NCBI RefSeq assembly: GCF_032854445.1
Contig: NC_088300.1
Location: 74,640,302-74,704,301, forward strand
Direction: 5' to 3'
Length of the DNA: 64,000 nt
Source: Liolophura sinensis
Lineage: Eukaryota
Positions 16,301 to 31,300 of the stretch are shown in pieces. The notes beneath the pieces were generated by a model. The model did no database searches. It was not told the DNA's origin and saw nothing but the letters and a program-made list of their open reading frames with translations. Position 1 is the stretch's first letter; each line of letters starts with the position of its first letter. The position numbers and the translations under genes were made by a program.

Positions 16301-19300
16301 CACCAAGTTTAAAGATTATTTATTTACAGTGAGGTTATTGTTTGGCCTGTGTTTATTAATTATACATTCTCGTGACTTTTGTTCTTAGGTTAGCGTAACA
16401 AGGTACTATAGAGAAGGGGCCCCCGTGGCTCAGTTGGTTAGCACGCTAGCACAGCGTAATGACCCAGGAGCCTCTCACCAATGCAGTTGCTGTGAGTTCA
16501 AGTCCAGCTCATGCTGGCTTCCTCTCCGGCCGTAAGTGGGAAGGTCAGCCAGCAACCTGTGGATGATTGTGGGTTTTCCCGGGCTCTGCCCGGTTTCCTC
16601 CCACCATAATGCTGGCTGCCGTCTTGTAAGTGAAATATTCTTGAGTACGGCGTAAAACACCAATCAAATAAATAAATAACTATGGAGAAATTTGATGCCT
16701 TTTGATTGAGTAAAAGACAGCGTCTGGCAGTAGGAAATGTACTGAACCCAATGTTCTACAGGGGCCTTGGATTGCACTCGATCTCTTGAACTTACTTGAA
16801 GTAATGATGGAAAAAACATGCCCTGTTTACCTTTATTCTCTGGATGTATAAATATTTGGCTGTTCTAAAGACGAGGTTGCTGCCTTTATTGGTTGCTGAC
16901 CTGCTTGTTCATTGTGAAAAGCCAATTCTTCAATGAATCAATGTCACTGTACAATGTGACAGCACTCTGATTTTTACATATCTCAGATATGTTTTTCAGA
17001 CCTATTTTGATTGAAATGGTGGTTTGTCTTTTGTATTGGTAAATGTTATTCAAAGTAGTCTGCTGTTTCTATATGAAGGTATATCTGAGATATGGTTTGT
17101 TATTGTTTGTCGTTACATTGAAATAAATTTTTAATAATCGCAAGGTTGAGTGAAGCAAAGATCATGAGAATTAAATTACCCTAATCCGTCAATCTTTTTC
17201 ATGTGAAAGATCAGCTGTCAGTGATCATTTTCAGAACTTAATAAAAAGTATAATTTTATCAGAATACGAGAAATAGTGTTTTAAGAATATGTTTAAATAG
17301 ACTCCTTGCAACCATGGAAAAAGGTTGAAGAATTACATTATGAACAAAGGCTTTTTATTCAACCCATTTGCACAGGCACCATATGAACGGTTATCAGTGT
17401 GTTTCTGCACATATTGTATAAGATTTATTTCTGTATTTTTGTCTTCTCCACACAGCTCCGACAAAGTCAAGGGCCATGTGATTGGAATAGATTTGGGAAC
17501 AACAAATTCGTGTGTTGCAATTATGGAAGGAAAAACTCCAAAAGTATTAGAAAATTCTGAGGGTGCACGAACAACACCTTCTGTGGTGGCCTTTACAAAA
17601 GACGGTGAAAGACTTGTTGGCATGCCAGCCAAGCGACAAGCTGTTACAAACTCAAATAACACCTTTTCTGCAACAAAGAGACTTATTGGTCGTCGCTTTG
17701 ATGATTCAGAAGTTCAGAAAGATATGTAAGTATGTATGGGTTTATGATCGTACATGTACAGTGAAATGGTTTTATTTTTTCTCCTGTGATGCACTTTGGC
17801 CAGTTTGTAGCAGTTTGTAGGATGAGTCTCAGATATTGCAAATTCACGCTTACTTCTTATTCAGATTTTTGTGAAACTGGATATATTTTTAATGTTAATT
17901 TTGATCCCTGTAGTGAATATAAAGTTTGTATGGGTATGACTTTCATTCATTTGGGTTATATGTTTCATTTTTAACTTTGTTACAATATTGTGACGGTGTA
18001 ACTAAGCTAACTACTTAAACTGGAAGTTGAAAACGGTATAGATCAGATAAATACCGTTTGGGAAACCTCGGCAGCCGAGATGGTTAGTGTGCTGGTATGG
18101 CAGAGTGACCCAGGAGTCTCACCAATACCCGTTGATTTTATACATACATATACATCTTGGTTGTATAAGAGTTGGTAGACAGGTGAAGTTTGAGTTTTAT
18201 GTTACTTATTTTTGGTTTAAAATATGGCCATTTGAATTACCAAAGCATGCATTATTTGCTGAAAGCTTAATTTTTGCTATTTCTATTATTAACTGTGACT
18301 GAAAATATGACTTTTGACTTTCGGGGTTCAAATCCGTGTGCTGACTTGGTGGTGAGGATTGTTACAGGATACCTGACCAGGTGTGGTGATTACCTTAACT
18401 CTTGACAGACTGCTTTCTTGCCGTCTACATGAACATAGTTGATGGCTGGGAAGTGAAATGGGTAGCAGTAGGCACTGCTCAAAAACCATATTAGTATCTA
18501 CATTCGCTATACCATTTTCATTTATTTCTGTCCCTGTCTTCTAGGAAAACTGTTCCATACAAAATTGTTAAAGCATCGAATGGTGATGCTTGGGTGGAAT
18601 CAAATGGAACTGTGTATTCACCAAGTCAAATAGGAGCCTTTGTTCTTGTGAAAATGAAAGAGACAGCAGGTAGGTTCCCAGTATCCCAGCTCGTGTGTTC
18701 ACACATTTCAGGATTAACTTCATTCAGATATGTTGATCAGTTGTTCATGTATTTTTTTCAAGGTTACACATGTGAAAGTTCTCACCACTGAAATTGTTTT
18801 GTTTCTTGTTTTACAAGCTTTGATTGACAGTTGCAATAAGGGCATTTTATGGCAAAATGTCCCTTGTTGTATTTGGCCCCAAGATTTTAAAATCTCCTTT
18901 AAACTATAATTTATTTCAAACTCATCTACCGTTATGTGAAAAATCGGATCCAAGAAAAAATTTTTGGCTGTTAGAAATGCTCTTGTGGATAAAGGTGTCT
19001 GTTAAGACATGGAAGAATATTTCAGCTTCTGTCCTTTAAGATCAGAATATAATTGTACATGAAACAGTGCCGCTGGAAAACGTCTTGGTCTTGAGCTTTT
19101 CTCTTAGCGTAATTTACATGAGTTGTGGTGATCTATTTCAGAGAGCTATGTGGGACAAACGGTGAAGAATGCAGTTGTCACTGTTCCAGCATACTTCAAT
19201 GATTCTCAGAGACAGGTGAGGTGAATCAGCACACTGTAAGGTGAATCAGCACACTGTAAGGTGAATCAGCAAACTGTAAGGTGAATCAGCACACTGTCAG

Positions 19301-28300: not shown

Positions 28301-31300
28301 CAAAGACCAAGACGAAAGCCTATTCTACCCCTAAGAATGAAGAAAATGATGCATAAACGGCATATTTCATGAGCTGTATTGCTGACGTTCTTTCACTCCC
28401 TCCACGGAAGTCATGTATTTTAGACCAATTCAATGACAAGCTTGACCATTGGAGTGGACCTAGATGCTTCACAGAGGCATATGACCTGTCTTATTGTTAC
28501 GTGATGTAGGAGTGTAAAAGTTTGCTGTACATTTATTATGACGTGCTAAGGCAGAGCTCAGATGGGAACGTCATGAAACAAATGTTTCTTTTTCCAGGTC
28601 ACATCGACTGGGTCTAGAATATCAAAAGTGTAAAAAGAAAAGCCATATCTAAACTGTGCAAAGTAACACGTTTATGTCTGATGGAAATTCCGATAGTTTG
28701 CTATAATGTAAATCATAAAAGCAAATCTAACAAGTAAACAAACTCAAATTCTTTCATTTGTACAAATAAACAACATGAACTGATATTATTTGGGGAGGTA
28801 AAGGCACCAGCCAGTGTGTTGCATGAAACACTCGATGTTTGAAAGGTCATTTCTATTTAATATATATATTATATTAACAGCGCGGTAGAATAATCACCCA
28901 ACAACCTGACAGCGTGAACATATCACATAAAGAAATACGGTAATCTCACTGGTTCTCAACATGTGGATCTTCTGGTTGTTTAAAATGGACTATTTGATCA
29001 GTTTGAAAAAGGAGTACAGATTGAAGAGAAATAATGACTTCATTCACTGGGTATATGCTGTGATAACTGCGGTAGAAAAGGAAGTGTCTATTATTCCTTG
29101 GATTTAATTCATTTCTTATAGTTTTTTAAGTCTTCTTGTGAGATCCTTTAAAATGATCACTTACAGGGCTACTCTTCTCACAGGCTGCAGTTCCCTTGCA
29201 TGAAATCTGAAATTTGGATGCATTTCTAGCAGTTTTAAAACTGTATGTTTCAGTAAGTTCATATAACACAGTAATCTTAAGATATACATACATATATCCT
29301 TTGAGGATCACAAAAGAAAATCATAAATATATATAAGATCAGCTGGTAGGATTCAGAAGTGGAAGGAAAAATGTCAAGAAAAACCCTTCATTGTAGGTGA
29401 AATAGAGGTGAAACCATATAAGTTTTGGTTTTGTGGTTACAGTAATATGAGATGGATTTATGGTCACAATAATGAGGCTTGGTTTGTGGTTACAGTATTG
29501 TGAGATGGATTTATGGTCACAATAATGAGGCTTGGTTTGTGTTTACAGTAATATGAGATGGATTTATGGTCACAATAATGAGGCTTGATTTGTGTTTACA
29601 GTAATATGAGATGGATTTATGGTCACAATAATGAGGCTTGGTTTGTGTTTACAGTAATATGAGATGGATTTATGGTCACAATAATGAGGCTTGGTTTGTG
29701 TTTACAGTAATATGAGATGGATGTATGGTCACAAAAATGAGGCTTGGTTTGTGGTTACAGTAACGAGTTACAGATTTATGGTTAGAGTAATGAGACCCAG
29801 TTTTATGGTTACCTTAATGAGGCATGGATTTATTTTGACAGGAAGTGGTGGAAGCCGTGAACCAGGCAGAAGGAATCATTCACGATACAGAGAGCAAAAT
29901 GGAAGAATACAAGGACCAGCTGCCCAAAGATGAGGTATGTTGTAGTGGGGAAAGACCAGCTGCCCAAAGATGAGGTATGTTGTAGTTTGGGAAAGACCTG
30001 CTGCCCAAAGATGAGGTATGTTGTAGTGTAGCTGGGTTGGTGTCCCATCAGTCTTTATCATGATACAGAGAGCAAGGTGGAAGAATACAAGGACCAGCTG
30101 CCCAAAGATGAGGTATGTTGTAGTGGGGAAAGACCAGCTGCCCAAAGATGAGGTATGTTGTAGTTTAGGAAAGACCAGCTGCCCAAAGATGAGGTATGTT
30201 GTAGTTTGGGAAAGACCAGCTGCCCAACGATGAGGTATGTTGTAGTGGGGAAAGACCAGCTGCCCAAAGATGAGGTATGTTGTAGTTTGGCTGGGTTGGT
30301 GTCCCATCAGTCTTTTTCATTATTATAACGATTGCTTTCTATATGGTTGTCTGATATGCTTGTATTGTGAAAACCAGCTGGAGGAGAATCCTGAAACTAT
30401 TGAATCTGCAAGCCCTCAGGTCAAGTATGAAAACGAGTCCAATCCATGGATAAGTTTAGCATATGTATTGAGTGCAGTGGTTCCCATTGACCATTGTTTT
30501 CTTTTCCAAAACTGTTCAAAATTTTGATTTTTATAAAATTGTAACTGGAGATTAAAGTTGAAAAGCAGTCATATCCATAATGATACATAAGATTTGGAAA
30601 TGGAATGATTTCGTTGATGAGGAGTGGATTCTAGTCAGTTTCTGTTATTTACACGGATCAGATCAGAAGAGAATCCAGACACTCAGATTACATTGTATAT
30701 GTCAGACGTCAGATCAAATATATAACCAAGCCGTGCATAGGATTGGCATATTTCATGAATAAGCATTACAGGATTCTGATTTGGTTGTTGATTTCTGTGC
30801 ATGATAGTGCTCTAAATATTTGTGGGTTTTTTATCAAATTTTGTTCATTGCATGTTCATTTTATGTAACCGGAGACTAATATTGAGGACCTGATGGATCC
30901 GTGTGTAAATTTGCCTATTTGTTGATTTCCTGTTTACTGATTGGCTGTTGGTTCCTGTGCTGTGACTGCTTCAAACTACTGTCTGATTTTGATCAAAACA
31001 ATTTGAGTACTTTAACAGTGTTGAACCTCTGACCAAGTTCGAAAACCATCCTGATTTGCACTTATGGTTGACATTTTCCTTGAGGTCCTTCAGTCTGATT
31101 GGTCATTGCATTTCATATTGTATGATACCTGCTATAAATATTGCCCGCTTTTGATAAAATTTTGTAACATCACATCAGATCATGTTGGTTTACATGTGAT
31201 ATTTGTTTAATAATATGAACGACCTTCCGCTCATGTGTGAAAACCAGCATGAGTGAAACAAAAGCCCTAAATATTTAGTGTGGAACGCATATCTTTGAAA

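Follow-up and report, generated by a model that had tools for sequence, protein, structure and literature searches.

Results

The HSPA9 gene of Liolophura sinensis

The DNA analysed here, referred to below as the window, is a stretch of 64,000 nucleotides (nt) from the chiton Liolophura sinensis (NCBI RefSeq assembly GCF_032854445.1, contig NC_088300.1, positions 74,640,302 to 74,704,301 of the forward strand). It carries the gene for HSPA9 (mortalin), a conserved mitochondrial chaperone that is taken to be essential. Several introns of this gene contain tandem arrays of short units lying at or close to exon-intron junctions, and in two of them the repeated unit includes exon sequence together with the 5′ splice site itself.

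Exons were placed by tblastn with human HSPA9, to which they are 67-96% identical, and were then linked at GT-AG sites. With the RefSeq protein as guide there was a single GT..AG solution for each of the 16 introns, and the protein was reproduced exactly: translation of the spliced model matched RefSeq 'stress-70 protein, mitochondrial-like [Liolophura sinensis]' at 100% identity across 100% of the query. This bears out the identification of the gene in a first-pass annotation made from the sequence. The RefSeq protein carries a precomputed PF00012 assignment and qualifies as a full-length mitochondrial HSP70 orthologue. The coding region and the exons referred to below are as follows, with a vertical bar marking the exon-intron border.

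13277..34522, + strand: HSPA9/mortalin coding region, 17 exons and 16 GT-AG introns (tblastn with human HSPA9 and the RefSeq protein)
19142..19215, + strand: exon 5, 74 nt, authentic donor CAG|GTGAGG
23154..23258, + strand: exon 12, 105 nt, authentic donor CTG|GTGAGT
27155..27249, + strand: exon 14, 95 nt, authentic donor AAG|GTGAGT
29842..29934, + strand: exon 15, 93 nt, authentic donor GAG|GTATGT

All four of these exons end in phase 0.

Arrays spanning the donors of exons 12 and 15

Tandem arrays were called by Tandem Repeats Finder (TRF), and the units were then cut by reading the sequence. The four arrays that the first-pass annotation had reported, in introns 5, 12, 14 and 15, were recovered by both means, with TRF scores of 169-617, far above chance. 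Two of them include the junction.

23216..23602, + strand: exon 12/intron 12 array, 51-53 bp x7.7 (TRF), spanning the donor junction
29880..30290, + strand: exon 15/intron 15 array, 40/41 bp x8.8 (TRF, 29914-30290), nested in a 178-bp x1.8 repeat that begins at 29880

The first unit of the intron-12 array consists of the last 43 nt of exon 12 followed by 8 intron nt, GTGAGTAT (GTGAGTRT); the TRF unit start at 23216 gives this figure in place of the 33 exon nt originally counted. Downstream of the authentic site the array contains five exact additional CTG|GTGAGT donors (GT at 23312, 23363, 23405, 23458 and 23509), and its final two units are degenerate. The intron-15 unit is made up of about 21 exon nt, GACCAGCTGCCCAAAGATGAG, and 19-20 intron nt, GTATGTTGTAGTKKGGGAAA, and here seven exact additional GAG|GTATGT donors follow the authentic one (GT at 29975, 30016, 30113, 30153, 30194, 30235 and 30275). 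In both introns the repeated donor 9-mers are identical to the authentic sites over positions -3 to +6.

Two alternating unit subtypes are present in the intron-15 array, and the copies of the 178-bp higher-order repeat are 96% identical. The 178-bp duplication also recopied 55 nt of exon 15, and by their sizes, 40 bp and 178 bp, two distinct duplication events are represented at this donor. Divergence is greatest in the units at the array edges, and derived changes are shared among the internal ones, as is typical of minisatellite turnover. The intron-15 array also produces the spurious minus-strand open reading frame (ORF) that had been remarked on, at 29876-30307 (143 aa).

Each junction, taken as 30 exon nt plus 12 intron nt, was also aligned against the remainder of its own intron. 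The z-scores were 23-27 for exon 12 and 30-32 for exon 15, and all of the other fourteen junctions scored below 1.5. The arrays after exons 12 and 15 are certainly junction-seeded.

Arrays close to other junctions

Further arrays called by TRF in HSPA9 introns are listed below. The acceptor-side array at exon 15 had gone unnoticed in the first-pass annotation.

19219..19361, + strand: intron-5 array, 20 bp x7.2, 97% matches, unit GTGAATCAGCACACTGTMAG
27268..27404, + strand: intron-14 array, 31 bp x4.4, 84% matches, starting 19 nt inside the intron
29425..29833, + strand: composite array on the acceptor side of exon 15, 53 bp x6.4 then 27 bp x3.2
32770..33038, + strand: array inside intron 15, 53 bp x5.1, 286 nt from exon 16

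The intron-5 array lies 3 nt from the edge of exon 5, and its unit begins 5 nt into the intron. As the unit ends in MAG and starts with GTGAAT, the array contains seven donor-like MAG|GTGAAT motifs. The only sequence that the unit has in common with the exon-5 junction is CAG|GTGA, and self-alignment was not significant (z=1.4). The repeated donors are weaker than the authentic CAG|GTGAGG, at 7.7-8.7 against 12.9 bits on an approximate position matrix that is a relative yardstick only, distinct from MaxEntScan. The sequence ACAG|GTGAG-GTGAATCAG can be read as a 5-bp GGTGA duplication on an older ACAG|GTGAATCAG. In that case the array is probably in register with the exon-5 junction, and the small duplication would have improved the authentic donor.

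The intron-14 array is 18 nt from the edge of exon 14. A donor scan and inspection of the sequence found no exon nucleotides and no good donor in its units, and the self-alignment score was low (z=0.8). Donor seeding was rejected for this array on the score and the missing motif; it is an ordinary intronic minisatellite, adjacent to the junction only. The 31-bp unit holds an inverted repeat, AATTGG ... CCAATT, from which a 6-bp hairpin could form. The 32770..33038 array is likewise an ordinary intronic minisatellite and provides a comparison from within the gene.

On the acceptor side of exon 15 the composite array ends 8 nt ahead of the exon. Its units start with the acceptor-like TTTRTGKTTACAG (TTTATGGTTACAG); one period beyond the last of them lies the true 3′ splice site, tttattttgacag, with 12/16 matches in register. 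An unrelated HSPA9 acceptor also matches the unit at 12/16 positions, and the acceptor self-alignment gave z=2.3; homology between the exon-15 acceptor and the upstream units is thus weakly supported and only probable. At each of its two ends, exon 15 thus adjoins an array resembling the splice site there.

It had been proposed that at least four introns of the gene begin with donor-seeded arrays whose unit holds the last exon nucleotides and the GT donor. This stands for introns 12 and 15 (z=23-32), is probable as to seeding for intron 5, where only the short CAG|GTGA motif is shared, and fails for intron 14. The associated idea of a ladder of reiterated donors is exact after exons 12 (five copies) and 15 (seven copies), applies in weaker form to intron 5, and does not apply to intron 14.

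Reading frame and predicted use of the repeated donors

Splicing to the downstream donors, which are spaced 20-53 nt apart, would extend the upstream exon by 5-340 nt, with mixed values modulo 3. An in-frame stop codon is present in every extension of at least 20 nt. Among shorter extensions a repeat-unit donor is involved just once, at the first copy in intron 5, where the added 5 nt shift the frame. The first-pass annotation had described the copies as in phase with the authentic donors and as possible in-frame alternatives; the stops and the frameshift contradict this, and in-frame tandem alternative donors of the GYNGYN type were rejected on the same evidence.

The RefSeq protein is obtained only when the first donors after exons 5, 12, 14 and 15 are used, and the junction residues that result match human HSPA9. 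Since the annotated protein needs the first donor, we infer that the first site is the one selected, and by this analysis the pseudo-sites are probably unused in normal mRNA. In predicted RNA structures the spare donors were no more concealed by pairing than the authentic sites, which leaves masking by RNA structure unsupported. On this prediction, position rather than structure must decide which site is used.

Position of the arrays within HSPA9 and the window

Clustering of arrays at junctions, another of the original observations, was confirmed. Of the seven intronic arrays of HSPA9, five are no more than 20 nt from an exon edge, where random placement predicts 0.16-0.28. When arrays were placed at random within the same introns, none of 200,000 trials reached five arrays near exon edges. 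The distances are 0 nt for the exon 12 and exon 15 donor arrays, 3 nt in intron 5, 8 nt on the acceptor side of exon 15 and 18 nt in intron 14.

No other copy of any array unit was found within the 64-kb window, and the arrays therefore probably arose locally; within the same scope there was no sign of a transposon-borne origin of the repeats. The background is repeat-rich, arrays of period at least 7 covering 8.0% of the window. As controls from the same window, a PDCD4-like gene (8 introns) and an alpha-tubulin gene contained no junction arrays, a sample too small to separate a gene-specific from a genome-wide feature. An SLC26/prestin-like gene was uninformative as a control across molluscs, the family being intronless or nearly so in this phylum.

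HSPA9 in other molluscs

We compared the HSPA9 loci of Patella vulgata, P. caerulea, Haliotis rufescens, Pecten maximus and Lottia gigantea, with exon models solved as for L. sinensis. In P. vulgata (locus positions 7186-7543) the acceptor of the exon-5 orthologue and the first ~26 nt of the exon are repeated 4-5 times upstream, and the tail of the same exon with its donor (AATGATTCNCAGAGACAG|GTAA) is duplicated once downstream, giving a junction self-alignment z of about 10. An acceptor-side array of the same type is present at the exon-5 orthologue of P. caerulea (locus positions 5576-5709), with 3-5 repeats across the two limpets. None of the upstream acceptor copies in the limpets (ttttgtag, ttttgtaa, ttttgtga) retains the true tttttcag, which gives the impression of spare acceptors that have been inactivated.

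In H. rufescens (locus positions 22783-23000) about three degenerate units of ~65 nt, containing GGACAGTTCTCNTTG|GTGAGGGG, follow the orthologue of exon 12. This repeat was not called by TRF; its junction self-alignment gave z=13, and it occupies the same junction as the 51-bp array of the chiton. No junction-spanning repeat was found in HSPA9 of Pecten maximus or Lottia gigantea. Because Lottia is without them, the Patella arrays must be younger than the split of the two limpet families. Junction-spanning repeats arose independently in the HSPA9 genes of Patella and Haliotis.

When HSPA9 of all six molluscs was pooled, an exon edge was at most 20 nt away for 11/41 intronic arrays, where 2.0 were expected; none of 200,000 simulations reached 11. 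Strictly junction-spanning arrays amounted to 6/42, where 3-7% would be expected if duplications were uniform and tolerated (P=0.0015-0.07); their excess is modest.

The structure had been presented as a peculiarity of one gene in one species, to be abandoned if orthologous introns proved alike. Junction-spanning repeats in HSPA9 of P. vulgata, P. caerulea and H. rufescens leave the first part unsupported; on the second, the Patella and Haliotis loci are alike and those of Pecten and Lottia are not. This partial likeness points to a general feature of slippage or tolerance. The earlier observation is real but overstated.

Logan sequence data gave additional matches. Full-length HSPA9 transcripts in Logan SRR22671415-21 are 89% identical to the chiton protein, and a prestin-like match, likewise from Logan, has 87% identity; these sequences could come from another chiton and might serve for comparison.

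Other features of the window

The remaining genes and repeats of the window are listed here.

1090-8497, + strand: 3′ part of the PDCD4-like gene, with MA3 domains at 4379-4681 and 6189-6404 and the C-terminus at 8426-8497
36805-37775, + strand: decayed Tc1/mariner-type transposase, just downstream of HSPA9
44128-45380: intergenic minisatellite block of 29-bp period
51602-53252: intergenic minisatellite block of 29-bp period
54759-56912, + strand: prestin-like/SLC26 sulfate transporter, a single uninterrupted ORF
61227-63353, + strand: alpha-tubulin gene, exons 61227-61448 and 62226-63353

Within its 8 introns in the window the PDCD4-like gene has two small tandem repeats (433-504 and 3735-3769), neither of them at a junction. 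The exons of the alpha-tubulin gene are 97-99% identical to a human alpha-tubulin query; the gene has no junction repeats, and a TACATATATG x2.9 repeat lies 97 nt upstream of its last exon. The SLC26 product is 100% identical to RefSeq 'prestin-like [Liolophura sinensis]'. Its homologue in Haliotis cracherodii is intronless and that in Patella caerulea has one coding intron, which suggests that this lineage is old and intron-poor in molluscs, and possibly retrocopied.

In the transposase remnant the helix-turn-helix region and the DDE_3 domain are in different frames, and the sequence is interrupted by a run of 27 A residues at 37084-37110. The minisatellite block at 51602-53252 comprises 35 units with a 259-bp higher-order repeat, and that at 44128-45380 coincides with strong AT and GC skew. 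Long spurious ORFs run through both, on the minus strand in the 44128-45380 block and on the plus strand in the other.

Discussion

Origin and fate of the arrays

We consider it reasonably probable that the HSPA9 arrays are young, tolerated minisatellites with silent spare splice sites, of the type called 'mirages' in amphioxus. On this interpretation, segments of 20-55 bp, and once of 178 bp, on or beside an exon-intron border would have been tandemly duplicated, the likely cause of the initial duplications being replication slippage or microhomology-mediated repair. The duplicates would then have expanded and been partly homogenised by unequal exchange. The copy joined to the exon would remain under selection and keep the gene working, the remaining copies having become intron. 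Productive splicing would use the exon's own copy: in introns 5, 12 and 15 the donor lying furthest upstream, and at exon 15 the acceptor lying furthest downstream, in agreement with human F7 IVS7 and the amphioxus mirages. A transcript spliced now and then at a spare donor would acquire a premature stop or a shifted frame well upstream of the last intron, and should be removed by nonsense-mediated decay. Since transcripts from spare donors would be removed in this way, the arrays would be tolerated and close to neutral.

Several observations weigh against this interpretation. Across the six molluscs, arrays that do not span a junction are by themselves concentrated near exon edges (6/36 within 20 nt against 1.8 expected, P=0.007), and neutral tolerance leaves these arrays unexplained. 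The donor of exon 5 is arrayed in both Liolophura and P. vulgata, and that of exon 12 in both Liolophura and Haliotis, lineages probably separated by hundreds of millions of years. Such shared junctions hint at a site preference, which is weak at about P=0.04 on a generous count and not significant on a strict one. The choice of the first donor is also at odds with one published rule. When two strong 5′ splice sites lie at least 45 nt apart, the downstream, intron-proximal site is used almost exclusively in vitro and in HeLa cells (PMC3413131); applied to HSPA9, this rule predicts unproductive splicing. It was shown with globin and adenovirus constructs (PMC3413131) and disagrees with the human F7 IVS7 variable number tandem repeat (VNTR), in which splicing takes place at the first of 5-9 identical donors and at no other (PMC1557585).

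Alternative explanations

The alternative that survives best is that minisatellites tend to be born at exon-intron borders, or at any rate at those of highly expressed genes, the arrays themselves still being non-functional. This is compatible with tolerated arrays and would add to that interpretation; as an explanation in its own right we regard it as unlikely but worth keeping in view. Such a preference might stem from polymerase pausing, from R-loops or nicks at splice sites, from nucleosome edges, or from the likeness of donors (CTGGTGAG, AGGTGGG) to recombinogenic minisatellite or Chi-like cores. The clustering of arrays at exon edges fits a hot spot, both in L. sinensis (5/7 within 20 nt) and in the pooled loci (11/41 against 2.0). 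So do the arrays on both sides of a single exon, exon 15 in Liolophura and the exon-5 orthologue in Patella, the two duplications of different size, 40 bp and 178 bp, at the exon-15 donor, the same junctions struck in distant molluscs, and the description of the amphioxus phenomenon as possibly general. On the other hand, strictly junction-spanning arrays exceed the number expected under neutral tolerance by only about 2-3 fold, the PDCD4-like (8 introns) and alpha-tubulin genes of the window and the HSPA9 genes of Pecten and Lottia are without junction arrays, and introns that were short ancestrally would by themselves place arrays near exons. Somewhat more doubtful again is a broader proposal, that junctions are hot spots of minisatellite birth in molluscs, through transcription- or splicing-coupled mutation or through selection for ladders of U1 sites beside short exons, with HSPA9 as a recurrent target.

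Selection might instead maintain the reiterated donors and acceptor-like units as functional ladders. These could serve as landing pads for U1 small nuclear ribonucleoprotein that strengthen the definition of short exons beside long introns. They might also shield the long introns from premature cleavage and polyadenylation, or set the level of HSPA9 by diverting transcripts into unproductive splicing. The arrays are indeed in the longest introns, beside short exons of 74-105 nt, they recur in HSPA9 of other molluscs, and the authentic exon-5 donor outscores its copies (12.9 vs 7.7-8.7 bits). The donor 9-mers are intact in all 5 + 7 full spare copies, but this absence of change is not significantly below that in the rest of the young units (about 2 changes expected, P about 0.1). 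Nor are the arrays conserved: Lottia is without the Patella arrays, Pecten has none, and the junctions affected vary by species. The intron-14 array has no splice motif, and in the known precedents the arrays are without function. A selected function is unsupported and, we think, improbable.

Least credible, and very improbable in our judgement, is that collapsed or stuttered reads, or a coincidence of position in a repeat-rich genome, produced the pattern: assembly errors are known to arise at tandem repeats, and a draft genome had one amphioxus mirage wrongly put together, but arrays of at most 411 bp would fit well inside single HiFi reads, the units are told apart by diagnostic substitutions and by length variants and follow an ordered higher-order pattern where stutter would have left them identical, like structures are present in independent assemblies of three other molluscs, and random placement never gave the observed clustering.

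Implications

With 5-7 identical and accessible 5′ splice sites 40-53 nt apart in a presumably essential gene, the chiton locus is a natural splicing experiment. If mirages occur in molluscs as well as in amphioxus, they are probably general in repeat-rich marine invertebrate genomes, which would matter for how introns lengthen, how new splice sites arise and how gene prediction goes wrong. Were junctions true hot spots, mirages would widely supply these animals with new splice sites, longer introns and unproductive isoforms. Junction arrays also carry a practical warning, as they yield false ORFs and alternative gene models. The locus offers a lead for a genome-wide survey.

Comparison with known junction-spanning repeats

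The HSPA9 arrays belong to a class that has been described, in amphioxus as mirages and in humans as VNTRs of the F7 IVS7 type, and extend this known kind. They share with it head-to-tail units that touch the exon, a boundary-spanning unit (exons 12 and 15) and an identical, recurring splice site. In the searchable literature 'mirages' were found only for amphioxus and none for molluscs; no earlier report seems to exist of molluscan cases, of several arrays in one gene, or of two junctions that are each arrayed in distant molluscs.

Amphioxus mirages are minisatellite-like tandem duplications of exon-intron boundaries in Adh3, TnC, globin (BflGb6, BflGb9) and PGBD5 of Branchiostoma (PMC3087553, PMC3902484); for the original description both papers cite Canestro et al. 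2002. Those of Adh3 have units of 10-72 bp, and those of the globin genes affect both types of boundary, with 3 vs 6 units in two haplotypes; the Adh3, TnC and globin mirages vary in copy number and are reported not to disturb splicing, and the authors raise a general cephalochordate phenomenon as a possibility (PMC3087553, PMC3902484). As in amphioxus, the HSPA9 units are head to tail, tens of bp long and composed of exon nucleotides plus a splice signal, the edge units escape homogenisation, and the host is an ordinary cellular gene whose spliced product is, as far as known, unaffected. They differ in their taxonomic position (Mollusca: Polyplacophora, with Patellogastropoda and Vetigastropoda at the related loci). 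Their units are shorter than the 150-160 bp of the amphioxus globin mirages, and several of the HSPA9 arrays abut exons without including exon sequence.

Tandem duplication of a segment containing AG|GT is also a route to intron gain or sliding (Rogers model; Drosophila cases, PMC2891723; PMC3265369). The resemblance to HSPA9 is that the duplication copies splice signals and the surplus copy is absorbed into the intron. The difference is that HSPA9 has acquired no new or shifted intron, its 16 positions giving the conserved protein, and that its arrays are multi-copy rather than the product of a single event.

Among human genes, F7, IFI6 (6-16) intron 2, CBS IVS13, LMNB2 and PDGF intron 4 have VNTRs whose first unit spans the donor (PMC1557585). 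As in these genes, of which F7 IVS7 has a 37-bp unit, an authentic 5′ splice site is followed in HSPA9 by identical pseudo-sites, of which the human arrays have 4-25; the human units, at 37-100 bp, are of similar size. Silence of pseudo-sites cannot be assumed, because IFI6 and CBS also use the first two (PMC1557585). The human F7 unit includes only 4 exon nt, compared with 21 and 43 in HSPA9. Each of the human genes has one junction array, whereas chiton HSPA9 has two or three at its donors and another on the acceptor side of exon 15.

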